Source: a bacterium (lineage in GTDB: Bacteria; Patescibacteriota; Minisyncoccia; Phycocordibacterales; Phycocordibacteraceae). From it: a stretch of 64,000 bases of DNA. Where the stretch lies: the NCBI GenBank assembly GCA_037200965.1, contig JBBCGK010000001.1, forward strand, positions 896,260 through 960,259, given 5' to 3'. Both the position numbers and the translations under genes were made by a program. Every line of letters begins with the position of its first letter. Position 1 is the stretch's first letter. Of this stretch, positions 2,370 through 15,514 are shown piece after piece. The notes beneath the pieces are model-generated. The model worked only from the letters and a program-made list of their open reading frames with translations. It did not search any database and had not been told where the DNA came from.

Positions 2370-4424
2370 ATGGCGAAGGCAGAGGCAAAAACACCCGCAA
2401 AAGCGAAGGCGTACGATGCGTCGGCCATTACCGTGCTCGAGGGCCTCGAGCCGGTCCGGAAGCGCCCGGGAATGTACATCGGGACCACGGGTCCCGACGG
2501 CCTCCACCACCTCATCTGGGAGATTTTCGACAACTCCCGCGACGAGGCCATGGGCGGGCACGCGAACGACATCGAAGTCGCTCTTCTTCCGGACGGCTAT
2601 GTGCGCGTAGCGGACAACGGACGCGGCATCCCGGTAGGGATACACCCAAAGACGAAGGTCTCGGCGCTTGAAACCATCATGACGACGCTCCATGCCGGAG
2701 GAAAGTTCGGCGGGGACGACAGCGGGTACAAGGTCTCGGGCGGGCTTCACGGCGTGGGCGCCTCCGTCGTAAACGCGCTTTCGGTGCATACGATGGCAAC
2801 CGTGCACCAGGACGGCGGTATCCACATGCAGGAGTACGCGATCGGAAAGCCCAAGGGGAAGGTAAAGCAAATCGGGAAGACCAAGGAGCGCGGCACGATC
2901 ATCAAATTCAAGGCCGACGATACGATATTCAAGGACGGCATCAACTGGAACTGGGACAAGATCGTCGCGCACCTGCGCCAGCAGGCATATCTCGTGAAGG
3001 CGGTGCGCATCTCGATCATCGACGCGCGCGGGGCGGGGAAGATCGACGACGAAAGCGTCTTCTATCTCCGGGATCTCAAGCTCGAAGTTCCGTCGATGTC
3101 CTTCTATTTCGAGGGAGGCCTTAAGTCGCTCGTCGCTTTCTATAACAAGCACCAGAAGCCGGTGCATCCTCATATTTTCTACGCAGAGCACGAAGCGGAC
3201 GGGGTCGCGGTCGAAGTCGCGCTCCAGTACGTCGACGACATCACCCCGCGGCTTACCGCATTCGCGAACAATACGTACAACGCCGAAGGCGGTACGCACG
3301 TGACGGGCTTTAAGACCGCGCTTACGCGTACCCTCAACTCATACGGCCGCACCGCGGGCATTCTCAAGGAAAGCGAGGAGAACTTCACGGGCGACGATGC
3401 GCTTGAAGGAATCACGGCAGTGATTTCGGTGAAGCTGCCGGAAATCCAGTTCGAGGGTCAGACGAAGGGCAAGCTCGGCTCGGTCGAGGCGCAGGGCGCG
3501 GTCGCAAGCGTATTCGGCTCCGCTTTTTCAACCTATCTTGAAGAGAATCCCGACGACGGGCGGGCGATCGTAAACAAGGTGCTGCTGGCACTCAAGGCCC
3601 GCAAGGCCGCGAAAGCCGCCAAAGACTCGGTGCTCCGCAAAGGCGCGCTTGAAGGCATGACGCTTCCGGGGAAGCTCTCGGACTGCCAGGTGAAGGACCC
3701 GGCGGAAGCCGAGCTCTTCATCGTCGAGGGAGATTCGGCAGGCGGCTCGGCGAAGATGGGCAGGGACCGCAGGACCCAGGCGATCCTCCCGCTTCGCGGC
3801 AAGATCCTCAACGTCGAGCGCCGCATCGACCGCATGCTCGAGTCGGACTCCATCCGCTCCATCGTCATCGCGCTTGGTGCCGCGATCGGCGACGTGTTCG
3901 ACCTTTCGAAGCTCCGCTACCACAAGATCATCGTCGCGACCGATGCGGACGTCGACGGCGCCCATATCCGCACGCTCCTCCTCACTCTCTTTTATCGCCA
4001 TTTCCGTCCGGTGATCGACGGCGGCTTCATCTACATCGCCCAGCCCCCGCTTTATAAGATCAAGAGGGGAAAGGAAGTATTTTATGCGTATTCGGACGAG
4101 GAAAAGAATAAGATTCTCGGGAAGGATGCCGCGCTCGCGGAAGAAATACAGGACGTAAGCGGAGAGGAGGACAGCGCGGGAGAGGAGGCAAGTGCTAAGA
4201 GGACCCCGAAGATTTCCATACAGCGCTATAAGGGCCTTGGCGAAATGAATCCCGAGGAGCTCAAAGAAACGACGATGGATGCCGGGAAGCGGGTCCTCAA
4301 GCAGGTCATGGTCGAGGACGCGCAGGAAGCGGACCGCATCTTCGATATTCTTATGGGCAAGGACGTTGCGAGCCGTAAGTCCTTCATACAGTCGAACGCG
4401 AAGCTCGCGAATCTGGATATATAA
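2370..4424 (+). CDS. gyrB: DNA gyrase subunit B
   Basis: 684 aa. GHKL ATPase motifs (GLHHLIWEIFDNSRDEAM, DNGRGIP, GLHGVGASVVNALS), a TOPRIM region (EGDSAGGS) and a C-terminal GyrB tail are present. Confidence 0.95.
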   Translation: MAKAEAKTPAKAKAYDASAITVLEGLEPVRKRPGMYIGTTGPDGLHHLIWEIFDNSRDEAMGGHANDIEVALLPDGYVRVADNGRGIPVGIHPKTKVSALETIMTTLHAGGKFGGDDSGYKVSGGLHGVGASVVNALSVHTMATVHQDGGIHMQEYAIGKPKGKVKQIGKTKERGTIIKFKADDTIFKDGINWNWDKIVAHLRQQAYLVKAVRISIIDARGAGKIDDESVFYLRDLKLEVPSMSFYFEGGLKSLVAFYNKHQKPVHPHIFYAEHEADGVAVEVALQYVDDITPRLTAFANNTYNAEGGTHVTGFKTALTRTLNSYGRTAGILKESEENFTGDDALEGITAVISVKLPEIQFEGQTKGKLGSVEAQGAVASVFGSAFSTYLEENPDDGRAIVNKVLLALKARKAAKAAKDSVLRKGALEGMTLPGKLSDCQVKDPAEAELFIVEGDSAGGSAKMGRDRRTQAILPLRGKILNVERRIDRMLESDSIRSIVIALGAAIGDVFDLSKLRYHKIIVATDADVDGAHIRTLLLTLFYRHFRPVIDGGFIYIAQPPLYKIKRGKEVFYAYSDEEKNKILGKDAALAEEIQDVSGEEDSAGEEASAKRTPKISIQRYKGLGEMNPEELKETTMDAGKRVLKQVMVEDAQEADRIFDILMGKDVASRKSFIQSNAKLANLDI

Positions 4425-4427
4425 AGA

Positions 4428-4458
4428 CAAATGCCGGGCGTTGCCACCCGGCATTTAA
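4428..4458. terminator. Bidirectional intrinsic terminator between gyrB (+) and the minus-strand gene 4474..5010
   Basis: Perfect 10-bp stem aaatgccggg/cccggcattt with an 8-nt loop. An A/T-rich flank lies on both sides. Confidence 0.55.
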
Positions 4459-4473
4459 CTCCCCGCTTTGAAC

Positions 4474-5010
4474 CTAGAGACTGAGGAAGATCTCCTTGCT
4501 CAGGCGAATGAGTTCCGCGTCCGGTTGCCGAAGCGTGTTTCTGTAAAATGCGGTAAGTTCTTCCCGGGTGAGATTTCGTCCCGGAGAACGACGTGTCAGC
4601 GCATTCGCGCACTGCCAACCGTCTTTTGGGTGCACGCCATTTCCCTCGTGACAGAAAAGGATCACGCTTTCAAGTGCCCATTTCGAGAGCTCGAAATACG
4701 TTCCAATTCCCGCGATTCGCGCAGCGGCGCACCTTGCTCCCGGACGAAAGTGTTGCTGAGCATATCCAGACCATTCGGTGAGGTTCCTGCCAATGACGGA
4801 GTCGATGTCGGGGGGATCGAATTTGTTTATGTTCCCGAATACAAGCATTGCCCGAATGCATTCCTCCATGACGTGTGCCCATATGTCCGTTCCGGGCTCT
4901 TCTGGACCGACGCTGGTGAGGAAATCTTCAAGAGCAGTTTTCTGTTCCGGCCATGTATGTTCGGCGCGGAAATACTCCAGCAAAGCGGACGCATTTTTGC
5001 AGTCAGACAT
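4474..5010 (-). CDS. Hypothetical protein (178 aa), lower GC than neighbours
   Basis: Clean minus-strand ORF between two terminators. Local GC is about 52% against about 62% nearby. No family recognised. Confidence 0.5.
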   Translation of the reverse strand: MSDCKNASALLEYFRAEHTWPEQKTALEDFLTSVGPEEPGTDIWAHVMEECIRAMLVFGNINKFDPPDIDSVIGRNLTEWSGYAQQHFRPGARCAAARIAGIGTYFELSKWALESVILFCHEGNGVHPKDGWQCANALTRRSPGRNLTREELTAFYRNTLRQPDAELIRLSKEIFLSL

Positions 5011-5082
5011 TTTCTCTCTCCGTGCGTTGGGTTGTCAGGATATTGATGGAACCAGATAACTATTTGCATCGTACATTCGGCA

Positions 5083-5130
5083 ACCGGGAAAAACAAGAGA
5101 ACCGCCCGCAATCCTTGCTTGCGGGCGGCG
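5083..5130 (-). terminator. Intrinsic terminator downstream of the CARDB gene (minus strand)
   Basis: 10-bp stem ccgcccgcaa/ttgcgggcgg, followed on the minus strand by TTCTCTTGTTTTT. Confidence 0.55.
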
Positions 5131-5146
5131 CCTTTCTTGTGAAATC

Positions 5147-5941
5147 TTAATCTCTGATCTCAATCGAAGCCGAAGCGTAGTTATTGCTTTCGTCGGACTC
5201 GCTCACGTCCTTGTCGGGGTCGAGCGTGACCGAGAAGCTCTGGTCGCCGGTCTTCGCTTCGCCATCGTCGAGATGGAGCATGAAGTCGATATGGTCGCCG
5301 GGATTGAGGGAAACCTGGGTAGGGGAGCTGAAGGTATAGCTCTGCTTGGTCGGGAGCTTGGCTTCGAAGTCCCAGGTGCCGGAGACATTCGTGCCGCGGT
5401 TAACGACCGAGAACTTGACCGCGAAGCGGCGGTTATCCGGAACGCTCGAACTCAGGACGAACGCCGCGTCGCTGCTGTCGTTACTGGGAAGGTAGCCGAC
5501 GACGAGATTCGTGACCGTGAGGTCAGGGAGGCCTGTGAACGAGCCGCTGCGGACCGCGGTGCCCGTGCCCGGTATTACGTATGCGTTATTCGCAGGCGCG
5601 CCCGCGGACGGGGTCGGCGCGACGGTCGCCGTAACCGAAGAGGTCGTCGTGGTCGTTGCGGGGATCACGACCGTGGTATTTACGGTCGTGGTGCTTGCAG
5701 CAGGGGTTCCAAACGGAACGACGGTGCCGGAGTTCACGACCTCAAGCGTGCTTTCCTTGGCGGGAACGAATACGGAAGAGAGCGAAACGGCCGCCTGGCC
5801 GATGCCGGAAATCGCGGCAGGGATATAGCGCGCCGTATAGACGGCGAGCGTCATGCCGATAAAGAGAAGCGCGATGAAGCCGACGACGGCGAGGGCCCGA
5901 ATGGCCGCCTGGCGGTTGTGGATCTGGGTTTCAGTATTCAT
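5147..5941 (-). CDS. Membrane-anchored surface protein with C-terminal CARDB-like domain
   Basis: Start taken at MNTETQIHNRQAAIRALAVVGFIALLF, which holds an N-terminal TM helix. A Thr/Ser-rich linker follows. The C-terminus (LPDLTVTNLVVGY...FAVKFSVVNRGTNVSGTWDFEAKL...SLNPGDHIDFMLHLD) is typical of a CARDB fold. The ORF is open further upstream to 6127. Confidence 0.65.
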   Translation of the reverse strand: MNTETQIHNRQAAIRALAVVGFIALLFIGMTLAVYTARYIPAAISGIGQAAVSLSSVFVPAKESTLEVVNSGTVVPFGTPAASTTTVNTTVVIPATTTTTSSVTATVAPTPSAGAPANNAYVIPGTGTAVRSGSFTGLPDLTVTNLVVGYLPSNDSSDAAFVLSSSVPDNRRFAVKFSVVNRGTNVSGTWDFEAKLPTKQSYTFSSPTQVSLNPGDHIDFMLHLDDGEAKTGDQSFSVTLDPDKDVSESDESNNYASASIEIRD

Positions 5942-6069
5942 AGGGATATGGATATATCTAACATGGCCCATTTTATTTGTCAATAGCCTCTTGTCAAGTT
6001 TTGTTCTTTGGGGCCTTATGCGACCTCTTGACAGGATCATTCTTATAGTGTAAATATGAGCAAGACTAT

Positions 6070-6753
6070 ATGAACGCAGTCGATAACGCAGTGCGGCTCG
6101 CGAGGGCCGCCAAAAGGGCGTACGCACGAAAGTGGGCCTTCGGAGGCCTGACTTTTATTGCATTCCTTCTTTCCGTTACGACGCTTGCGCATCTTGACCT
6201 CTTGCCTGAAGCGGCCGCGCCGCAGACGGCATCCGCCGGATCGGCGCCCGCAGTCGCCATGGATGTTTCGGGCGTTGTTTCCGCTCCGACTATACCGCAG
6301 TCCGCTGAGCTTCCCGTGAAGATCGAGGTGCCGTCGATCAGGCTGTCCGCGAAGATCGCGAATCCGTCTTCGACCGATATCGAAACGCTCGACCATGCGC
6401 TTCTTGGCGGAGCGGTCAGGTACCCGACGTCGGCGAAGCTTGGCGAAGCCGGGAACGTGATACTCTTCGGCCACTCAAGCTATCTGCCGGTCGTGAGCAA
6501 CCAGGCGTTCAAGACGTTCGACGGCATACAGAACCTTGAGAAAGGAGACCGCATCATCGTATCTTCAGGCACGAGGGCGTACGCCTATGCGGTAGCAGGC
6601 GTGTCGAAGCAGAGCGCGGCATCCGACGCCGGAATCGCCCTGACCTCGACCGGCCATACGCTTACGCTCGCCACGTGCGACTCGTTCGGAGAAAAGACCG
6701 ACCGGTTCGTCGTGACCGCAGAACTTGTCGAGAGCTATCCGCTCGTCCCCTAG
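6070..6753 (+). CDS. Sortase family transpeptidase
   Basis: N-terminal TM segment; catalytic motifs LFGHSSY and TLATCDSF (the TLxTC Cys). Confidence 0.8.
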   Translation: MNAVDNAVRLARAAKRAYARKWAFGGLTFIAFLLSVTTLAHLDLLPEAAAPQTASAGSAPAVAMDVSGVVSAPTIPQSAELPVKIEVPSIRLSAKIANPSSTDIETLDHALLGGAVRYPTSAKLGEAGNVILFGHSSYLPVVSNQAFKTFDGIQNLEKGDRIIVSSGTRAYAYAVAGVSKQSAASDAGIALTSTGHTLTLATCDSFGEKTDRFVVTAELVESYPLVP

Positions 6754-6882
6754 GGGGCGGCCGGATAGCTCTCTGCAAACTTTCCGCAAGGGAAGCGCAG
6801 AGGCGAAGAAATTCGTTCTTTGTAACCGTGAGTCAGTAATAACCCTAGAGCCGCGTGAGCGCGGCAGATCGGAGAACAGGCG

Positions 6883-7974
6883 ATGCGTAGAATTCTCATC
6901 GCCGGTGTCGTGCTCGCCCTCTTGGCGATTATCGGCATCGGTCTCTACAACTTCTTCTCGGCGAGTTCGGCCTCTCCGGCGAAGTCGCCGGTGTGCGCTG
7001 TGACGCTTAGCGAGCGTCACAGCATGGGATGGAAATATCCTGGCGCTGACCCGTTGGTCGAGCGCAAGGGAACCCATTCCGAGCGGCTTGCGAAGGCTCG
7101 CACCTTTGACCGTTGTTCGATGGAGCGCGCCGGAATCCCTGCGAAGGTGATCGACGCGTTCCTGAAGGCAATGGCGAAGCCTGGCGTGCATAAGTCCATC
7201 AAGGACGGCGTGCGCTACGATTTCGTCTCAAGCCGCGGCCCTACAGTCACGAAGAATGTCACGACGCGGTTCGGCCGCGGCGTTCCTCTCAAAAGTGAGA
7301 AGCGCTCCGCTACCGAATATGTCGTGGTCGTCGACGGGGTAACCTGGATCGCCGACCGTTTTGACTGGTGCATGAATCTCGGCGTGCGCCATGTGCGCAA
7401 GCCGAAGAAGCATCATCCGCCGAAGCGTCACCAGCCCCCTCCGCCCGTAAAGGTCACGGAAGAGCGCTGCTACCGCATGCCGTACGACTATCGGACGACG
7501 ACGGGCGAAAACGGGAAACCTCTTCCCGCGATCGACGTCTCGGACGGCTTCGTGCATCATCAGATCTACGTCAAGGATCTGACGAGCGAGGTTATGGCCG
7601 AGCTCATCAGCGATCCGTGCACGTACATGCACGACGAAACCGGCGACTACCGGCTCGAGCTCGGCTGCGACTGCGCCCGCGGCGGCTATCCGTCGCCCGA
7701 AGTGGCCGAGAGGAACGATCTCCCGGCGCAAAGGCCCGAAGCGGTGGCGCACGTGAAAGGGAGGGGCTTGGTCGGCTACTACTCGTATCCGATCGACTTC
7801 AACCGCTCCACGCTCTACTGCGTGCGGACCAACGGGTACCATCTCGAGACCCGGGGGTTCGAAGCGTTCATGGCGTTCTCGCGTTTTGAGATCGTGTCCA
7901 GGACCGCGGTGGCTGAAACCCGGCAGGCGGGCCAGCTCAGCTGGGCCGTCACCGGTTCCGGAAAGACCCTCTGA
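6883..7974 (+). CDS. Hypothetical membrane-anchored protein (363 aa)
   Basis: GGAGAACAGG SD-like sequence upstream. N-terminal TM helix (ILIAGVVLALLAIIGIGLY) and a Pro/His/Lys-rich low-complexity segment. The antisense ORF 7228..8331 is judged a GC shadow. Confidence 0.5.
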   Translation: MRRILIAGVVLALLAIIGIGLYNFFSASSASPAKSPVCAVTLSERHSMGWKYPGADPLVERKGTHSERLAKARTFDRCSMERAGIPAKVIDAFLKAMAKPGVHKSIKDGVRYDFVSSRGPTVTKNVTTRFGRGVPLKSEKRSATEYVVVVDGVTWIADRFDWCMNLGVRHVRKPKKHHPPKRHQPPPPVKVTEERCYRMPYDYRTTTGENGKPLPAIDVSDGFVHHQIYVKDLTSEVMAELISDPCTYMHDETGDYRLELGCDCARGGYPSPEVAERNDLPAQRPEAVAHVKGRGLVGYYSYPIDFNRSTLYCVRTNGYHLETRGFEAFMAFSRFEIVSRTAVAETRQAGQLSWAVTGSGKTL

Positions 7975-7989
7975 CCCAAAGCCGTACGC

Positions 7990-8018
7990 TTGACAACAAG
8001 GCGACGGCAGTGTAATCT
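7990..8018 (+). promoter_or_regulatory. Candidate sigma70-type promoter for the large surface-protein gene
   Basis: TTGACA (7990-7995), a 17-nt spacer, then TAATCT (8013-8018). A nested palindrome gtgccacggcac lies just downstream. Confidence 0.4.
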
Positions 8019-8035
8019 TTTGAGAGCGGGGAATC

Positions 8036-10519
8036 GTGCCACGGCACATCCCCGCCCTCTTTGTACGGGAATCAATCATGACCACCGAAACCACAACCAT
8101 TTCACAAAACAAAAAGAACATGAGCCCGCTCGTCACCGGGCTCTTGAGCGTGGTCGCGGTGCTCTCGATCGGCTTCAGTCTCGGCATCGTGACCGGGGTC
8201 GTGAACGTCCCTTTCACCGAAGCCTGCTGCGTTCTACCGCCTCCACCGATCGTCATCCCTCCACCGATCGTCATCCCTCCACCGATCATCCTTATCCCGA
8301 GCTGTTCGCTCGAAGTGGAACCGTCTTCCATACATCCCGGCGAAACCGCGACGCTTTCGTGGACTACCGTGAACGTAACGGGCGCGGAAATCGATCATGA
8401 CATCGGCGAGGTCGATCTCGACGGCACGTACGACGTATCTCCCTCGGAGACGACCGAATACACCATGACGGGCATGGGTCCCGGAGGCGAGACGATATGT
8501 ACCGCAACCGTCGAGGTCATACCGCCTCCTCCCCCCGCTCCTACTTGTACGCTCACCGCATCCCCGGCCTCCTTTACGGGCAGTGGCGTATCGACGCTCA
8601 CATGGACCACCTCGAATGCTACCTCGTTCACCATTAACCACGGCGTCGGTTCGGTAACTCCGGTTGCCAGCGGATCGAAAGTCGCTCCCGCCATAAGCGC
8701 GAATACTACGTATACCGGTACGGTAGAGGGGCCGGACGGGCAGCAGGATACCTGCACCGCAAGCGTCACCGTGACGCCCGTATCGCCTGGCACCCCGGCC
8801 TGTACGCTCACGGCCTCTCCGGCAAGTTTTACCGGCACGAGCGTGCAGCCAACCCTTACCTGGACCACCTCGAACGCAACCTCGTTCACTATTGACCATA
8901 CGATCGGTTCCGTAACGCCGGTGGGAAGCGGCTCGGTCTTGGCTCCCGCCATTACGACCACCACTACCTACACCGGTATCGCTACAGGTCTCGGCGGCAC
9001 TTCGCAGCCGTGTACGGCGACCGTCACGATAACCCTGCCGGGTGCGCCTGCATGTACGCTCACCGCATCCCCGGCCTCCTTTACGGGCAGTGGCGTATCG
9101 ACGCTCACATGGACCACCTCGAATGCTACCTCGTTCACTATTGATCATGCGATCGGCTCGCTTACTCCGGTCGCGGGCGGTTCCACGACGACGCCCAACC
9201 TTACGGCTACCATCACCTACACCGGTATCGCTACCGGTCCTGCAGGCACGTCGCTGCCCTGCACTGTAACTATTACCGTCACGCCATCCACGCCGGGGCT
9301 CGCGTGTACCCTCACCGCAGATCCGACCTCTCTCCCGGAGGGCGGCGGCACTTCGACCCTCACCTGGACTACGACCGGCGCTACGTCTTTCTCTATCGAC
9401 AATACTATCGGTGCGGTATCTCCTCTGTCCGGCGGTTCCACGACGACGCCGAAGATCACGGACGACACGACGTTCACCGGCACGGTAACCGGTCCTGCCG
9501 GAACCAATAGTTGTACCGCGCAAATCACGGTCGCCGCCAAACCGAGCTGTACGAGCGGTTGCGGAGGGGGCGGAGGAGGAGGGGGCGGCGGCGGTCGCCG
9601 TGTCAGCCGTCCGCACGTGACGCTTGATGTCCTCAAGCAGCCGGATGTCGAACCGCTCGCCTTCGTCTATCTTTCGCAAATTCCCTATACCGGCCTCGAT
9701 CTCGGGCCTGTCGGCACCGTCGCATACTGGGTCGCGCTCGTCGCATGGAGCCTCGCGGTCGCGTATCTTGCGCTCTTCATCCTCCTGCCGTATCTCAGGC
9801 GCCGCATGCAGCGGTTTGCGGAGGCCGTAACCGAGACGCTGAACGCCGAGCAGCTTGCACCCGAAACCGCCCCGGCATATCGTCCGGAGCCCGCCAAAGC
9901 CCCGGTCATGCGCGCGTCCGCAGCGCAGAACGCCGCTCGCGGGTACTCCACGTACGACGGATTCCGTTCGTTCGCGAAGTCCGGCAGCCTCTCGATCGAC
10001 GATATCGTGAAGGGTCTTGCGCGCGAGTCCGCGCCCGACGACGCGGTCGTACATTCCGAGCGCATCGTGGCCCGCGCCCAGAAGACGGAGCCGATCTATG
10101 AGAGCGTCGAGCCTATCTATGGAAATGTCGAACCGGTGCATTCGAGCGCGGCACCCGCTCGCCAGGCACCGCAGGCAAACGCGGCCCCGGTGCATCCTGA
10201 GGTGCCGGGCTTCATCGAAGCCCTTCTTAAGGGCGAGCGGGAAGTGGTATTCGGCGCCGTCCGCGCTACGGTCCGCGCCGGGGGAGACGCCGAAGCGTTC
10301 CTCACCCAGGTCGTCTGCGCGCTTGATGACGCGTACCGCGCGCGTACGGAAGGCACGCCGGTGCATCCGGAGGTGGCGCGCATCACGAACGATTGCGCGA
10401 CCTCCTTCCTCGAACGCCTCGTGACCTCGCTTTCGACTGCAGTCGACTCAAGCTACTCGCAGGGCATCACGGGCGCGAAGCTCGCGCTCACCAGGGCGCT
10501 TGCCGTTACGGGAGCGTAA
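8036..10519 (+). CDS. Large surface protein with five tandem Ig-like repeats, poly-Gly tract, internal sortase-signal-like TM segment and C-terminal domain of unknown function
   Basis: 827 aa. N-terminal TM, then a PPPIVI proline repeat. Five repeats of about 85 aa follow (CTLTASPASFTG...TWTTSNATSFTI.H.IGSVTPV...TYTG...CTATVTV), then G13. The segment LSQIPYTGLDLGPVG-hydrophobic helix-RRR is followed by about 250 aa. Start could alternatively be 8078 or 8120. Confidence 0.75.
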   Translation: MPRHIPALFVRESIMTTETTTISQNKKNMSPLVTGLLSVVAVLSIGFSLGIVTGVVNVPFTEACCVLPPPPIVIPPPIVIPPPIILIPSCSLEVEPSSIHPGETATLSWTTVNVTGAEIDHDIGEVDLDGTYDVSPSETTEYTMTGMGPGGETICTATVEVIPPPPPAPTCTLTASPASFTGSGVSTLTWTTSNATSFTINHGVGSVTPVASGSKVAPAISANTTYTGTVEGPDGQQDTCTASVTVTPVSPGTPACTLTASPASFTGTSVQPTLTWTTSNATSFTIDHTIGSVTPVGSGSVLAPAITTTTTYTGIATGLGGTSQPCTATVTITLPGAPACTLTASPASFTGSGVSTLTWTTSNATSFTIDHAIGSLTPVAGGSTTTPNLTATITYTGIATGPAGTSLPCTVTITVTPSTPGLACTLTADPTSLPEGGGTSTLTWTTTGATSFSIDNTIGAVSPLSGGSTTTPKITDDTTFTGTVTGPAGTNSCTAQITVAAKPSCTSGCGGGGGGGGGGGRRVSRPHVTLDVLKQPDVEPLAFVYLSQIPYTGLDLGPVGTVAYWVALVAWSLAVAYLALFILLPYLRRRMQRFAEAVTETLNAEQLAPETAPAYRPEPAKAPVMRASAAQNAARGYSTYDGFRSFAKSGSLSIDDIVKGLARESAPDDAVVHSERIVARAQKTEPIYESVEPIYGNVEPVHSSAAPARQAPQANAAPVHPEVPGFIEALLKGEREVVFGAVRATVRAGGDAEAFLTQVVCALDDAYRARTEGTPVHPEVARITNDCATSFLERLVTSLSTAVDSSYSQGITGAKLALTRALAVTGA
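8235..8297 (+). repeat. 21-bp tandem repeat (about 3 copies) encoding PPPIVI motif
   Basis: ccaccgatcgtcatccctcca repeats directly, with a variant third copy. Confidence 0.5.
8305..9545 (+). repeat. Five tandem coding repeats of about 250-255 bp; copies at about 8536-8660 and 9055-9170 are nearly identical at DNA level
   Basis: The 100+ bp stretch tgtacgctcaccgcatccccggcctcctttacgggcagtggcgtatcgacgctcacatggaccacctcgaatgctacctcgttcac occurs twice, near 8541 and 9061. Diverged copies lie near 8800 and 9300. Confidence 0.7.
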
Positions 10520-10532
10520 TCGGATTTAATAA

Positions 10533-10578
10533 AAAGAAGAACACCGGCGGACGAAATCCGCCGGTGTTCTTCTTTTGC
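10533..10578. terminator. Bidirectional intrinsic terminator between the surface-protein gene (+) and thrS (-)
   Basis: 18-bp perfect stem aagaagaacaccggcgga/tccgccggtgttcttctt with loop cgaaa. T/A-runs lie on both sides. Confidence 0.7.
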
Positions 10579-10582
10579 GCGT

Positions 10583-12346
10583 TTAAGAACGCGTTTTGAT
10601 TTCCCTGAGCGCTTTCGCGGCAAAATCTGCCTGCTGCATCGCGTCGAGCTTGCCGTGGTCCCGGCTTTCAACAGAAACCGTACCAGATTCTTGTTCTTTG
10701 TCGCCGACGACAAGTACGTACGGAACCTTCTCGAGTTTTGCCGCGCGCACTTTCTTGCCGAGGGACTCGTTCGACGAATCTGCCTCCGCGCGGATATCGG
10801 CTGCCTTGAGCGTTGCCAGAACCTCTCTGGCATATCCGTCATGCTTCTCCGAAACCGGAAGCACCTTCACCTGCACGGGCGAGAGCCAGAGCGGAAAAGC
10901 TCCGCCGAAATGCTCGATCAGGAAACCGAAGACACGCTCCAAGCTGCCGATCGTAGAACGATGGATCATGACCGGTCGTTTCTTTTGTCCGTCCGCGTCT
11001 ATGTATTCGATATCGAATTTTTGGGGAAGCAGGAAATCCATCTGGGCAGTAAAAAGAGTATCCTCTTTGCCGTTCACGTTTTTTGCCTGCACGTCGAGCT
11101 TCGGGCCGTAAAAAGCGGCCTCGTCTTCCGCCTCGACATACGGAAGCCCGAGTTCATCGAGCGCTTCTTTCATAAGTCCCTCTGCAAGATTCCAGAGATC
11201 GTCGTCGGGATAATATTTTTCCTTGTTATCAGCATCCCGCTTCGAGAAGCGATATGAGACGACATCGATAAGACCAAGGCCTTTCATTCCCTCGACGATC
11301 ATCGTGCATACGCTCTTGAATTCCTCCTTGAGCCCTTCCCGGGTTACGAAAATATGTCCGTCGGTAAGCTGGAACTTGCGGACACGGATCATGCCCATGA
11401 GCTCTCCCGATTTCTCATATCGGTTATAGTCGGCTATTTCCGCGTAACGCACGGGCAGATCCTTATAGCTCCACTGTTTTCTCTGGAACATCCGAATATG
11501 ATGGGGGCACGCCATCGGGCGCAGGTAGAACTTGTCCCCGTCCATGTCGATAGGCGCATACATATTGTGCGCGTAATGGTCGAGGTGTCCTGAAATACGA
11601 TACAGCTCCTCGCCTCCGAGATATGGCGTCGACACATGCTCATAGCCATATTTGCGTTCGAGTTCCCGTGCGAAGTTCTCCATTTCGAATTTCACCGCAG
11701 TGCCCTTCGGCGTCCACAAAGGAAGGCCTTTGCCGACTTTTTCATCGATCAAAAAGAGGTCCAGCTCGCGGCCAAGCCTCTTATGATCGCGCTTCTCCGC
11801 CTCCTCTCTTCGCATACGATAGGCCTCCAAGTCCTCTTTAGTCTCAAACGCGAGCCCGTAGATGCGGGTCAGCTGCGCGTTCTTCTCGCTACCGCGCCAG
11901 TACGCGCCTGCAATACGGTCGAGGGCGAACGACTCGGGGGCGATCTCCTGTGCCGGGTTATCTGCCTGACCGCCACGGCAAAGATCCGAATACGCGCCGG
12001 AAGTATAAAATGAAACCTTCTGTCCGTCGGCGGTAAATTCGTCGATCAGTTCCTGTTTATAGGGATTCCCCGGGTACTGCGCCTTCGCTTCCTCGGCCGA
12101 AAGTTCCGAACGCGTGAATGAGGTCCAGGTCGGAAGCAGTCTGCGCATGACTTTCTCGATCTCGGGAAAATCCTTCTCCGATATCGGTTTCGAAAATTCG
12201 AAATCGAAATAGAAGCCGGTATCGATCGCAGGGCCGATAGTCCGCTTGGTGTCCGGCCACAGTTCCATGACCGCGGCGGCCAGGAGATGCGCAAGCGTAT
12301 GCCGTTTTTCTTCAAGCGTTGCCATAGGATATAGAGAATAGCACAC
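10583..12346 (-). CDS. thrS: Threonine--tRNA ligase (short form lacking N-terminal TGS/editing extension)
   Basis: 587 aa with class II aaRS core and anticodon-binding domain (HRSTIGSLERVFGFLIEHFGGAFPLWLSPVQVKVLPVSE...). GTG at 12346 or ATG at 12325. Lies immediately downstream of dnaE. Confidence 0.9.
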   Translation of the reverse strand: MCYSLYPMATLEEKRHTLAHLLAAAVMELWPDTKRTIGPAIDTGFYFDFEFSKPISEKDFPEIEKVMRRLLPTWTSFTRSELSAEEAKAQYPGNPYKQELIDEFTADGQKVSFYTSGAYSDLCRGGQADNPAQEIAPESFALDRIAGAYWRGSEKNAQLTRIYGLAFETKEDLEAYRMRREEAEKRDHKRLGRELDLFLIDEKVGKGLPLWTPKGTAVKFEMENFARELERKYGYEHVSTPYLGGEELYRISGHLDHYAHNMYAPIDMDGDKFYLRPMACPHHIRMFQRKQWSYKDLPVRYAEIADYNRYEKSGELMGMIRVRKFQLTDGHIFVTREGLKEEFKSVCTMIVEGMKGLGLIDVVSYRFSKRDADNKEKYYPDDDLWNLAEGLMKEALDELGLPYVEAEDEAAFYGPKLDVQAKNVNGKEDTLFTAQMDFLLPQKFDIEYIDADGQKKRPVMIHRSTIGSLERVFGFLIEHFGGAFPLWLSPVQVKVLPVSEKHDGYAREVLATLKAADIRAEADSSNESLGKKVRAAKLEKVPYVLVVGDKEQESGTVSVESRDHGKLDAMQQADFAAKALREIKTRS

Positions 12347-15300
12347 CTAGAGCGCCTTCAGGTTCTCGATCGCGAGCGTGGTCTCGCCGTTTCTGAGGGA
12401 CACCTTTGCTTTTATAAGAACGCATTTGCCGGGAACGATGAGCCCCTGGTGTTCCTTGAAAAGCTTCGGGAAGACGACCGATTCGATCGAGGCGGTCTTG
12501 TCGGCAAGCTTCACGAACGACATCTTGTCGCCGTTTTTCGTGAGCATCGTCTTTATCTCTTCGATAAGGGCCGGAAGGATGACCGGAAGGCCTTGCTGTG
12601 GGTTTTCCTTGAGCGATCCGATCGTGAACTTGGCCTGGCCGAGCTTCTCGTCGTGCGCGTCAAGCGGATGGCCCGAGACGTAGATACCGAGCAGTTCTTT
12701 TTCCCATTCGAGCTTTTGTGCGACCGAGACATCCTCGGCTGGCTTAAGGACGAGCGCGGCGGAGTTTGCAAGCGAAGCGCCGAAGAGCGAATCCTGCGGC
12801 GCTGCGGCAGTCGCATCGCGGTGAAAGAGCAGCAGGTGCTCTATATTCGCGAGAAGCTCTCCGCGGCTGCCGAATCGGTCGAGCGCGCCGCAGCGTATAA
12901 GCGACTCGAGAGACTTGCGGTTAAGGTTTCTCGAGCCGACGCGGGAGAGAAAGCCGGTGAGGTCCTTGAACGGTCCGTGCGCGTTCCGCTCGTCAAGAAT
13001 CGCTCCGGCTATGCCGTCACCGAAATTTTTGATTGATGAGAGGCCGAAGCGGATGCTGTCTTTCGCGCCGCCCACGACCGTAAAGGTGGTGCCGCTTTCG
13101 TTTATGTCCGGCGGAAGGACGGGTATCTTCATGCGCTCGCATTCGGCGGCGAGTATCGCGATCTGCTCGGTGTCGCCCGCGTCGGCGGTCAAAAGCGCCG
13201 CCATGTATTCGACGGGGTAGTTCGCTTTCATGTACGAGGTCTGGTACGCGACCTTGCCGTAGCTTGCCGCATGCGCCTTGCCGAAGCCGTAGGCGGCGAA
13301 CGGCTCGATGAGCTTCCAGAGCTTTTCCGCCTTCGCTTCCGTGAGCTTGCCGAACTCCTGGAACCCCTTGGTGAGCTTCTCCTTCTCCTTCTCCATGATT
13401 TCCGGAATCTTCTTGCCCATCGCCTTGCGGAGCGCGTCGGCCGTAAGCCAGGAGTAGCCGCCGAGCTTTATCGCCGTCAGAAGCACGTCGTCCTGGTACA
13501 CCAGGAGCCCGTACGACGCATCCAGGTATTCCTTCATGCGCTCGTCAAGGTACGTGATCATTTTCGGATTGCTCTTGCGCTCGATATAGGAGGGGATGGA
13601 TTCCATCGGTCCCGGGCGGTAGAGCGCGACCATGGCGTTGATGTCGTGGATGGTAGTCGGCTTGAGCTCCTTCAAATAGCGCGTCATACCCGAGCCGTTC
13701 AATTGGAACGTGCCTTCGGTCTCGCCGCGGGCGAGCATGGCGAAGGTCTTCGGGTCGTCAAGCGGCACCGCCTCGATGTCGATATAGATGCCTTTGCTTT
13801 CCCGCACGCGCTCGACGGAGTCCGCGAGGATGGCGAGGTTCTTGATGCCGAGGAAGTCGAACTTCAAAAGCCCCGCGTCCTCGATGGAATGCATGTCGTA
13901 CTGCGTGATCAGCTTGCCGCCCTTGGGGTCGAACTGGAGCGCGGTCCATTCGGTAAGCGGAGTGGGTGCGATCACGACGCCCGCCGCGTGCACGCCGGTA
14001 TGCCGCACGCAGCCTTCGATCCGGCGGGCGAGATCGAGTATTTCGTGCGAGTCCTCGTCTTCCTCGTAGAGGCTCTTGAGGTCGGGCTCGAGCTCGAACG
14101 CCCGGTCGATCGTCATGGGGAATCCTTGCGAGCCGATCGGGATGAGTTTCGCGATGCGGTCACCGGTGCCGTATGCATGTCCGAGCGCGCGCGCGACATC
14201 GCGGACCGCGGCGCGGGCCATCATGGTGCCGAAGGTGCCGATCTGCGCGACGCGGTCGTCGCCATATTTTGATTTCGCATACGCGATCATCTCGTCGCGT
14301 CGATTGTCGGCGAAGTCCATGTCGATGTCCGGCGCGGACGGGCGCTCGGGATTGAGAAAGCGCTCGAAGGGGATTTTGTAGGCGAGCGCGTCCACGTTCG
14401 TGATCCCGGCAAGGTACGTCACCATCGATCCCGCGACCGATCCGCGGATCGTCGTCAGGATGCTGTTCTTATGGGCGAAATCCAGGAGGTCGGATACGAC
14501 GAGGAAGTACGGCGCGTATCCCTTGTCGCCGATGATCTTGAGCTCGTATTCGACGCGTTCAAGGAGCTCCGGCGTGGCCGTAAGCCCTCTTCTTGGTATT
14601 CCGGCGAACGTCTTCGCGCGCAGCTCCTCATCGTGCGTTTTGAACCCCTCGCCGACCGCAAGGTCGGGGAACACCCATTTGCCGAGCTCGAAAACGACAT
14701 TGCAGCGGTCCGCGATTTCCTTCGACCGGTCGACCGCCTCGGGCATGTCCTTGAAGTACGCGAGCGCCTGCTTTTCGCTTATGAAAGAGAAGTCCTCGAC
14801 TTCATTGCTCCGGTTGCCGCCCCCGCCGTGCTGGATCCTCCGCATCACCTCGCACGCTTCCCGGTCGTCGGGGGAGAGATAATACACGTCGTGCTGCGCG
14901 ACGACCGGCACGCCGGAGGATTTCGAGAGTTCGACGATCCGCTTCATCTTTTCCTGGTGTCCGGCGGCCTTGGGGTGGTACGTGACTTCGAGGAAGACGT
15001 TGTCCTTGCCGAACATGCTCACGTATTCGGCAAGCGTCGCGGCCGCCGCCTCCGTCTGTCCCGCGCCAAGGAGCTTCGCGACGTCTCCGGCAAATGAGGG
15101 AATGATGGCGATAAGCCCGCCCGGGTGCTTTTTAAGAAGCTCCTTGTCCATGCGGGGCCGTTCGTTGAAGCCTTCGGTGAAGGACTTGGTGACGAGCTTG
15201 AGGAGATTCTTATAGCCGTCGTTATTTTCCGCGAGGAGCACGAGCCGGGAGCGGTGTTCGTTTTGCCCCTTATCAAAGCGCGAACCGTGCGCAAGGTATG

Positions 15301-15514
15301 CGTCGACGCCGATAATGGGTTTCAGCTCCGCTTTTTTCGCCTCCTTATAGAATTCGATCGCGCCGTGGAGATTTCCCGAGTCGGTGAGCGCGAGCGCTTC
15401 CATGCCTTCCTTTTTCGCGGCACCCACAAGCTCGTCGATCTTCGGGAGTGCCTGGAGGAAGGAGTAGTGGCTGTGGGCGTGGAGATGGATAAAGCGACTC
15501 ATGACGTACAGCAT
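12347..15514 (-). CDS. dnaE: DNA polymerase III alpha subunit
   Basis: N-terminal PHP domain FIHLHAHSHYSFLQA, then polymerase core, fingers and a C-terminal OB region. About 1051-1055 aa; start 15514 or 15502. Confidence 0.9.
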   Translation of the reverse strand: MLYVMSRFIHLHAHSHYSFLQALPKIDELVGAAKKEGMEALALTDSGNLHGAIEFYKEAKKAELKPIIGVDAYLAHGSRFDKGQNEHRSRLVLLAENNDGYKNLLKLVTKSFTEGFNERPRMDKELLKKHPGGLIAIIPSFAGDVAKLLGAGQTEAAAATLAEYVSMFGKDNVFLEVTYHPKAAGHQEKMKRIVELSKSSGVPVVAQHDVYYLSPDDREACEVMRRIQHGGGGNRSNEVEDFSFISEKQALAYFKDMPEAVDRSKEIADRCNVVFELGKWVFPDLAVGEGFKTHDEELRAKTFAGIPRRGLTATPELLERVEYELKIIGDKGYAPYFLVVSDLLDFAHKNSILTTIRGSVAGSMVTYLAGITNVDALAYKIPFERFLNPERPSAPDIDMDFADNRRDEMIAYAKSKYGDDRVAQIGTFGTMMARAAVRDVARALGHAYGTGDRIAKLIPIGSQGFPMTIDRAFELEPDLKSLYEEDEDSHEILDLARRIEGCVRHTGVHAAGVVIAPTPLTEWTALQFDPKGGKLITQYDMHSIEDAGLLKFDFLGIKNLAILADSVERVRESKGIYIDIEAVPLDDPKTFAMLARGETEGTFQLNGSGMTRYLKELKPTTIHDINAMVALYRPGPMESIPSYIERKSNPKMITYLDERMKEYLDASYGLLVYQDDVLLTAIKLGGYSWLTADALRKAMGKKIPEIMEKEKEKLTKGFQEFGKLTEAKAEKLWKLIEPFAAYGFGKAHAASYGKVAYQTSYMKANYPVEYMAALLTADAGDTEQIAILAAECERMKIPVLPPDINESGTTFTVVGGAKDSIRFGLSSIKNFGDGIAGAILDERNAHGPFKDLTGFLSRVGSRNLNRKSLESLIRCGALDRFGSRGELLANIEHLLLFHRDATAAAPQDSLFGASLANSAALVLKPAEDVSVAQKLEWEKELLGIYVSGHPLDAHDEKLGQAKFTIGSLKENPQQGLPVILPALIEEIKTMLTKNGDKMSFVKLADKTASIESVVFPKLFKEHQGLIVPGKCVLIKAKVSLRNGETTLAIENLKAL

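Follow-up and report, generated by a model that had tools for sequence, protein, structure and literature searches.

Can a sorting signal placed in the interior of a protein, with 237 further residues behind it, direct that protein to the sortase encoded in its neighborhood? The question is raised by a 64,000-nucleotide (nt) stretch of DNA from a Patescibacteriota bacterium of the family Phycocordibacteraceae (contig JBBCGK010000001.1, positions 896,260 to 960,259), referred to below as the window. A gene located at 8036..10519 on the + strand encodes a surface protein whose immunoglobulin (Ig)-like repeats are followed by an IPYTG pentapeptide, a transmembrane (TM) helix, and a cytoplasmic part. 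Based on the open reading frame (ORF), this anatomy, and 259 homologues of the C-terminal module, we designate the product a PYTG-module surface protein, or PYTG protein. A sortase gene is located two genes upstream. The PYTG protein is probably the dedicated substrate of this sortase, which would cleave it between T552 and G553, and a functional partnership between the sortase and the module formed by the motif and the helix is very likely.

An internal sorting-signal-like module

The module extends from amino acid (aa) 541 to 590 (9656..9805, + strand) and comprises LAFVYLSQ-IPYTG-LDLGP, a TM helix, and RRR. The pentapeptide IPYTG, encoded at positions 9680-9694 (+ strand), contains the putative scissile bond T552|G553. 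The stretch LSQIPYTG (aa 546-553) is separated by 5 residues from a 29-residue hydrophobic helix (aa 559-587), and the helix is followed by RRR (aa 588-590). This succession had been proposed by a first reading of the DNA (the sequence-only reading) and was found as described, the motif being conserved in 120 homologues. In AlphaFold2 (AF2) models, the motif is predicted to belong to a disordered segment located immediately outside a single long helix. The canonical sorting signal is tripartite and consists of a motif, a hydrophobic helix, and basic residues (PMC8225981). The layout of the module fits this definition. The module is not located at the extreme C-terminus since 237 residues follow RRR.

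In the 120 homologues, the pentapeptide conforms to [IVMLTA]-P-[YQK]-T-G. The P, T, and G residues are invariant and position X is occupied by Y, Q, or K, usually Tyr. The sequences IPQTG, VPDTG, and YPRTG have been shown by experiment to act as sorting signals in pneumococcal pilins (PMC5640630). The pattern of substitutions supports the view that the pentapeptide varies exactly as would be expected of a sortase site. Conservation extends beyond the pentapeptide. The invariant residues of the module are L546, P550, T552, G553, Y564, W565, Y577, and P585, and the flanks and the helix are also conserved, with PLAxxYLSQ preceding the motif and LDLGP.GT..YW..L..W....AYL.LF...P following it.

When a 70-position profile built from the motif and the helix was used in an exhaustive HMMER search, 801 cluster representatives were retrieved at E ≤ 1e-3, including 202 at E ≤ 1e-10 (Paceibacteria); with the 70-residue module as query, a word-indexed profile search yielded 8 short fragments only. 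Thus, the module is not a chance occurrence, because P, T, and G are invariant in the 120 homologues and the profile matched 801 cluster representatives. A six-frame scan of the 64-kb window revealed no second xPxTG-plus-helix site besides IPYTG. The curated anchor models Gram_pos_anchor (Pfam) and LPXTG_anchor (NCBIfam) did not match the window protein at E ≤ 0.1, and they were absent among the 25 families listed of the 71 matched in a relaxed scan of 120 members.

Linkage of the module to a sortase gene

The sortase gene of the window (6070..6753, + strand) is genuine, as the sequence-only reading had assumed (PF04203, E 6e-21), and its product, the putative cognate enzyme, has an N-terminal membrane anchor. 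The active site is intact, as all cluster sortases (57/57) have H135, C203 (in TLxTC), and R212, and the enzyme is predicted to be active because of this invariance. The closest solved structure is that of Bacillus anthracis SrtA (2kw8, E 2.5e-7). The window sortase remains under every NCBIfam class cut-off (A-F and GN), the best score being obtained with class E (48.3 bits vs 160).

The gene order in the window is CARDB-domain protein (- strand), sortase (+), gene X (+), and PYTG protein (+), with gaps of 129 and 61 nt between the genes of the + strand. The same order is repeated in loci L001, L002, L004, and L007. Linkage was counted in the window and 86 other loci, a locus being evaluable if it contained enough upstream DNA. 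A sortase gene was present on the same strand, 0.7-2.8 kb upstream, in 57/57 evaluable loci of the window family, and all loci devoid of a sortase gene (31/31) end at a contig edge within or just before the PYTG gene. For a second family with a shorter tail, recovered by an independent metagenome scan, the sortase gene was found within 3 kb of 21/23 non-redundant evaluable genes; both exceptions belong to L134, in which the sortase gene is located 3.4 kb upstream of the first PYTG-module gene. The sortase-X-PYTG cluster is conserved in every evaluable locus, corresponding to about 80 distinct genomes or contigs. The gene linkage is obligate, and the connection between the sortase and the surface protein is much stronger than could have been told from the sequence alone. 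The assignment of the PYTG protein as a surface protein also holds. No C-terminal signal was found in either neighbor.

The sortase cluster was observed at a fixed chromosomal site, between gyrB and thrS-dnaE-rnhB, for both substrate families (window 2370-15514; L001, L002, L007, and L089). L004 departs from this arrangement, as ABC-transporter and uvrABC genes flank its cluster. Since the position is conserved in both substrate families, it points to an old, vertically inherited core feature of the envelope rather than to a mobile island.

A constant module with interchangeable ectodomains and tails

A search with the last 307 residues of the window protein retrieved 259 homologues, all from metagenome-assembled genomes of the Paceibacteria/Kaiserbacteria type, and a genome scan detected the module in 259 GTDB species representatives. 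On the N-terminal side, the homologues vary, with Ig-like repeats, 'TATNYN' repeats, or SpaA-like domains; from the poly-Gly run onward, they are constant. The first hundred or so HMMER matches correspond to the window family, in which the motif is located 250-320 residues from the C-terminus. The next group of matches is the short-tail family, the members of which combine a signal peptide and a Tyr/Gly/Asp-rich or Ig-like ectodomain with this module and a tail of 80-120 residues ending with [IV]D.F[IV].[SA]Q[IV]NR. Alignment of the two families by hhalign yielded exactly 43 shared columns, which begin with YLSQ and extend to the last residue of the helix (E 6e-25), and this 43-residue motif and TM module is the only segment common to the substrate families. 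The length of the tail varies from about 22 aa (second gene of L134) and about 25 aa (P0252) to 80-120 aa and 240-320 aa. Since only 43 columns are shared across families, the module is the constant element, and the ectodomain and the tail are interchangeable. For the same reason, the sortase gene tracks the module. The PYTG substrate is probably the principal variable adhesin, with an ectodomain that is swapped freely between species and a fixed anchoring module. The 43-residue module provides a simple search key, 801 clusters having already been found.

Locus L134 contains two PYTG-module genes (7065-8306 and 9700-11022). The product of the second one ends shortly after the helix, thereby forming a nearly canonical C-terminal signal.

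A collar-like domain in the cytoplasmic part

AF2 models were obtained for aa 521-827 and for the full-length protein, and they agree on the layout of the 237 residues following RRR. In both, the cytoplasmic part is predicted to consist of a disordered linker, a conserved box, a disordered stretch containing EP(I/V)YE, and a six-helix bundle. The box, GYSxYDGFRSFA..LSIDDIVKGLAR (aa 636-664; 9941..10027, + strand), contains the invariant residues G642, F643, D656, V658, and L661. The tandem EP(I/V)Y(E) repeats are located in a disordered linker (aa 684-702; 10085..10141, + strand), and one to three copies of EP(I/V)YE were found in 66/108 homologues. These repeats are reminiscent of EPIYA-type tyrosine motifs. 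The C-terminal six-helix bundle (aa 721-827; 10196..10516, + strand) is modelled with a predicted local distance difference test score (pLDDT) >90 and resembles domain III of clamp loaders, the 'collar' responsible for the cohesion of the clamp-loader pentamer.

The modelled bundle has the fold of the collar domain. Searches at the sequence level gave the following results. PF12169 (DNA_pol3_gamma3) did not match the window protein and matched 3/120 homologues weakly, the best E value being 0.055. Alignment with Escherichia coli DnaX by hhalign displayed the expected helix register with a non-significant probability of 4.6%. A profile search of the PDB retrieved nothing, and neither the window nor the fetched loci contained a dnaX gene. 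The collar-like domain is preceded not by AAA+ domains I and II but by the TM helix and disordered linkers. We have therefore not filed the domain as a member of the clamp-loader family; as judged from the models, it may work like a clamp-loader collar and may derive from it. The sequence-only reading had described an internal signal followed by a domain of about 250 aa of unknown function. The internal position of the signal was confirmed, the part behind RRR comprising 237 residues, and a collar-like fold can now be assigned to the domain. Strong purifying selection acts on the 237-residue tail, 21 columns of which are invariant. Since this applies to the conserved box and to the collar-like domain, they must act before cleavage or after it. 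The collar-like domain probably oligomerizes, or docks the precursor or the remnant to a cytoplasmic partner.

The box, which reads GYSxYDGFRSFA..LSIDDIVKGL, is also present in L007, where a short-tailed PYTG protein is followed downstream by a separate 79-aa ORF (4371-4610). This ORF encodes a module-like TM helix and a GFxS..LSVEDIVKGLSHE box; it shares the TM helix and the DIVKGL box with the window protein and has neither an ectodomain nor a PYTG motif. Two other downstream genes were considered as candidates for a detached collar domain. A 182-aa gene of L089 was rejected because its hhalign probability against the C-terminal module was 0.3%, and a 209-aa gene of L007 was rejected because it has no obvious resemblance to the domain, as judged by eye only.

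Proposed processing of the PYTG protein and alternative explanations

Processing of the PYTG protein as a sortase substrate would involve the following steps. The precursor would be exported via a Sec signal peptide and cut at a conserved A-x-A|..CC site. The module (YLSQ-IPYTG-LDLGP, helix, and RRR) would hold the ectodomain at the membrane, where the membrane-anchored sortase would attack the T552-G553 bond. The ectodomain, with its succession of CC, polyPro, five Ig-like domains, CxxxC, and polyGly, would be transferred to an acceptor of the envelope, most simply a peptidoglycan precursor. A 275-residue remnant (G553-A827) would stay in the membrane with the box, the EPIYE repeats, and the collar-like domain. 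The latter part could be active before cleavage, by clustering or positioning the precursor with the set formed by the sortase, X, and the CARDB protein, or after cleavage, as an autonomous membrane protein. This proposal relies on the invariance of P, T, and G combined with a variable X, as in proven pilin signals, on a tripartite layout and a topology that match the canonical signal, on the adjacent sortase gene in 57/57 and 21/23 loci, and on the lack of any other candidate substrate in the 64-kb window. The sequence-only reading had left two options open, sortase cleavage and a plain stop-transfer helix, of which cleavage is favored by these observations. In Streptococcus gordonii, a histidine kinase senses the C-peptide that SrtA leaves behind (cited in PMC11326707), which is a precedent for a functional remnant.

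Cleavage by the sortase could also generate both a wall-attached Ig-repeat adhesin and a membrane-tethered collar-like protein that would form a ring or bind the clamp-loader or replisome proteins of the cell itself. This extension is unlikely. If true, it would couple assembly of the main surface protein to a cytoplasmic process, by a sortase-dependent outside-in link encoded at the fixed site gyrB ... thrS-dnaE, in an ultra-small, host-dependent lineage.

Several observations weigh against cleavage of the PYTG protein. The signal is never strictly C-terminal in the window family, and the conserved 237-residue tail with its 21 invariant columns is also compatible with an uncleaved bitopic receptor. 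Unlike in ordinary LPXTG signals, sequence conservation extends to the flanks and the TM helix (YLSQ, LDLGP, GT..YW..W....AYL), which suggests a protein-protein interface that would not require cleavage. The curated LPXTG-anchor models gave no match, the search for other substrates covered 64 kb of the genome, the signal peptide was called by a hand rule, and the case for cleavage is an inferential one. An uncleaved type I membrane adhesin or receptor, with the ectodomain still joined to the cytoplasmic domain, would account for the conservation of the TM helix and flanks well beyond the pentapeptide, for a cytoplasmic part that is conserved and folded, and for the lack of match with the anchor models. 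In such a protein, YLSQIPYTGLDLGP and the TM helix would provide a juxtamembrane and intramembrane interface through which the sortase, X, and the CARDB protein join the PYTG protein in a complex, and the collar-like domain would be responsible for clustering or signaling. However, the catalytic triad is intact in 57/57 sortases, indicating that a substrate is needed, and there is no other candidate nearby. Invariance of P, T, and G with a variable X is the signature of a sortase site, and the tail shrinks to about 22-25 residues in proteins in which the module and the sortase remain. For these reasons, an uncleaved protein appears somewhat unlikely. It is also conceivable that the sortase acts as a polymerase or ligase, joining Thr552 to a Lys residue or to the N-terminal amine of another protein. 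The partner could be another copy of the substrate, the product of gene X, or the CARDB protein, and the product would be a fibre or a heteromer instead of a wall-anchored monomer. Pilins handled by class C sortases typically have I or V at the first position (IPQTG, VPDTG), and two additional secreted or anchored proteins (X and CARDB) are always co-encoded. Polymerization is nonetheless quite unlikely, as the families have unrelated ectodomains, no conserved pilin motif with a Lys residue was seen, the near-invariant residues of X are limited to C, N, and C, and the window sortase scores best, albeit weakly, with classes E and D, not with class C.

The PYTG gene could finally be an artefact due to assembly collapse or to a frameshift fusing a surface-protein gene to the gene of a separate cytoplasmic protein. 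Many of the homologues present in databases do appear as 'stand-alone' C-terminal proteins of 270-300 aa only, which begin just before the motif, and repeats often break assemblies inside the PYTG gene. The stand-alone proteins were rejected as evidence for a split gene since they are truncated calls over continuous ORFs. In L001 (6642-8873) and L004 (6252-8801), the DNA encodes, in a single uninterrupted ORF, a protein of about 745-850 aa organized as in the window, and antisense ORFs had been called over the GC-rich repeats. The fused architecture associating the ectodomain, the module, and the tail is continuous in >50 independent genomes. Thus, the fused architecture is real and the hypothesis of an artefact is effectively refuted. 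The sequence-only reading had considered that a frameshift might have merged two genes, which does not withstand the recurrence of the fusion in other genomes, and that the C-terminal domain might be encoded by a separate gene in homologues, which turned out to reflect gene-calling artefacts. Public annotation of the PYTG family is often wrong, only the last 270-290 aa being called together with spurious antisense ORFs over GC-rich repeats. About one third of the genome loci (L008-L087) are cut by the end of a contig inside the PYTG gene, the repeat region being a frequent assembly breakpoint. Repeat copy numbers in assemblies, including the window, should therefore be treated cautiously.

Comparison with known systems

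The PYTG protein shares several features with substrates of the LPXTG/sortase systems (Gram-positive SrtA and pilin sortases; RrgB with IPQTG). These include an N-terminal export signal, an xPxTG motif with fixed P, T, and G, a helix and basic residues directly after the motif, and a membrane-anchored sortase with His, Cys, and Arg. In contrast, the PYTG signal is internal and followed by 237 conserved cytoplasmic residues, its flanks and TM helix are conserved in sequence, X is usually Tyr, the window sortase belongs to no curated class, and the anchor hidden Markov models have no match.

Class GN ('marine', subfamily 6) sortases form a dedicated one-sortase/one-substrate pair with an adjacent target protein containing LP[QK]T[AS]T. 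Both systems associate one sortase gene, by its genomic location, with one large surface-protein gene outside the classical Firmicutes and Actinobacteria. They differ by the sortase clade, the window sortase matching TIGR03784 with an E value of 0.01 and 15.5 bits vs a cut-off of 158 bits. They also differ by the target, since the class GN target ends with the signal, lacks a cytoplasmic domain, and has another motif, whereas the PYTG system comprises the X and CARDB accessory genes. Domain III of clamp loaders (DnaX tau/gamma, delta, delta', and RFC; PF12169) differs from the collar-like domain of the PYTG protein, which lacks AAA+ domains I and II, forms part of a transmembrane surface protein, and shows no significant sequence similarity to it. 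In S. gordonii, sensing of the SrtA C-peptide by the SGO_1180 two-component system is alike in that a membrane remnant is functional after cleavage; it differs in that a short peptide is read by a separate kinase, whereas the remnant of the PYTG protein would itself carry a folded cytoplasmic domain.

Three features of the PYTG system are not described for sortase substrates, namely a sequence-specific helix, two accessory genes, and a folded cytoplasmic domain of the clamp-loader type. Sortases have been reported in more than half of the candidate-phyla-radiation genomes (PMC6744442). A full-text literature search retrieved no paper on a PYTG- or IPYTG-type sorting signal or on this Parcubacteria/Patescibacteria/Paceibacteria cluster, and sortase substrates in Paceibacteria are not described in the literature. 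If processing of the PYTG protein by the sortase is confirmed, the cognate signal and the main sortase substrate would be identified for a whole class of uncultured, ultra-small bacteria. The concept of the sorting signal would be extended to an internal module with a sequence-specific helix and a remnant containing a folded clamp-loader-like domain. With IPYTG as a peptide, a new sortase specificity can be tested directly (YLSQIPYTGLDLG; Abz-FVYLSQIPYTGLDLGP-Dnp).

The ectodomain and its N-terminal and membrane-proximal regions

The N-terminal TM or signal segment noted in the first reading corresponds to a hydrophobic segment identified by hydropathy at aa 30-56 and preceded by a KK n-region. 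AF2 predicts a helix at aa 30-53. The segment is a probable cleavable Sec signal peptide (8078..8221, + strand), with the h-region at aa 30-56 and a putative AxA-like site, FTEA|CC, near aa 62. The pattern 'A-x-A|Q..PPCC' is kept in homologues. The call of the signal peptide and of its cleavage site was based on a hand rule rather than on a dedicated predictor, as was the call of the TM helices.

The CC dipeptide is followed by a Pro-rich stalk (8222..8299, + strand) consisting of about three tandem PPPIVI repeats, and CC plus polyPro is present in many homologues. The (PPPIVI)x3 motif previously noticed corresponds, at the DNA level, to 2.7 copies of an 18-nt unit that are 100% identical (8240-8287). 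The stalk is disordered in the AF2 model. The mature N-terminus of homologues contains ..PPCC followed by polyproline (up to >30 Pro); in another sublineage, it contains EGDGGGG.. repeats.

The five Ig-like repeats (8300..9544, + strand) are tandem beta-sandwich domains, each bracketed by two Cys residues, as deduced from alignment, AF2, and Foldseek. They are R0 (aa 89-168; 8300-8539), R1 (aa 170-254; 8543-8797), R2 (aa 256-338; 8801-9049), R3 (aa 340-422; 9053-9301), and R4 (aa 424-503; 9305-9544). AF2, run with 85 aligned homologues, predicted a seven-strand beta-sandwich for all five units (pLDDT >90), and Foldseek matched tandem Ig arrays in the PDB (GhpA, titin, Dscam, and RTX-adhesin extenders) with E values down to 1e-14. 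The count of five repeats made by the sequence-only reading is therefore correct, with the qualification that there are four close copies and a divergent one: R1-R4 are 54-73% identical to each other at the protein level, and R0 is 38-43% identical to them (about 40%).

An exact 86-nt match is shared by R1 (8546..8631, + strand) and R3 (9053..9138, + strand) and is the only exact repeat of at least 40 nt in the 64-kb window. The DNA of R1 and R3 is 95% identical over 100 nt and 88% identical over 140 nt; in the rest of the units, identity is 58-71%. The 86-nt patch looks like a gene-conversion tract, not a recent duplication, because the surrounding units are only 58-71% identical. The near-identity of two copies over more than 100 bp had been correctly noticed, with the qualification that the exact run measures 86 nt. 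The description of the region as recombination-prone is weakly supported, as it depends on this single patch. The slippage potential is modest because the poly-Gly codons are mixed.

The repeats are followed by CTSGC (CxxxC) and a Gly11 spacer (aa 505-520; 9548..9595, + strand), which are disordered in AF2 models. The Gly run comprises 11 residues (aa 510-520) encoded by mixed GGN codons, rather than the 13 first counted. Nearly all homologues have a run of 3-25 Gly residues, and CxxxC is found just before poly-Gly in about half of them. The four cysteines of CC and CxxxC flank the ectodomain at both membrane-proximal ends. A role of the poly-Gly run as a sortase nucleophile was considered and dismissed, since a run in the interior of the chain offers no free amine. 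With the linker of about 30 residues, the poly-Gly run (3-25 residues across species) is treated as a flexible spacer.

Gene calls and neighboring genes

The 827-aa ORF of the PYTG gene begins with a GTG codon. An in-frame ATG at position 8078 would lead to an 813-aa product. The antisense strand contains a 710-aa ORF (8234-10366, - strand). Pfam and NCBIfam gave no match with the full window protein at E ≤ 0.1, and an exact look-up in a collection of 15 billion proteins found no entry for the 827- or 813-aa forms. The same collection contains the product of the neighboring gene X (P0262, NCBI WDN10_05305).

Gene X (6883..7974, + strand) encodes a fast-evolving, Cys-rich orphan protein with a signal or TM segment. 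It usually sits between the sortase gene and the substrate gene, and the genes found in 47/56 loci belong to one family. Gene X had no Pfam match, a relaxed Pfam scan of the 47 members gave nothing consistent, and a word-indexed homologue search retrieved only gene X itself. In L089, the gene located after the short-tail PYTG gene (8269-8817) encodes a small, lipoprotein-like product, as judged by eye. This product displays a Cys/His peptidase-like pattern (CADFIN...GHVGVV) and is possibly a cell-wall amidase or peptidase.

The gene divergent from the sortase gene (5147..6127, - strand) encodes an N-terminally anchored CARDB-domain protein (PF07705, E 9.5e-8), and a CARDB-domain gene was found in 55 loci. 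A strong sigma-70-like promoter match (11/12) is present at 5997-5970 (- strand), within the first part of the long CARDB ORF. The true start of the CARDB gene is probably downstream of position 5970, leading to a protein of about 270 aa as in homologues, and the apparent overlap with the sortase gene would then vanish.

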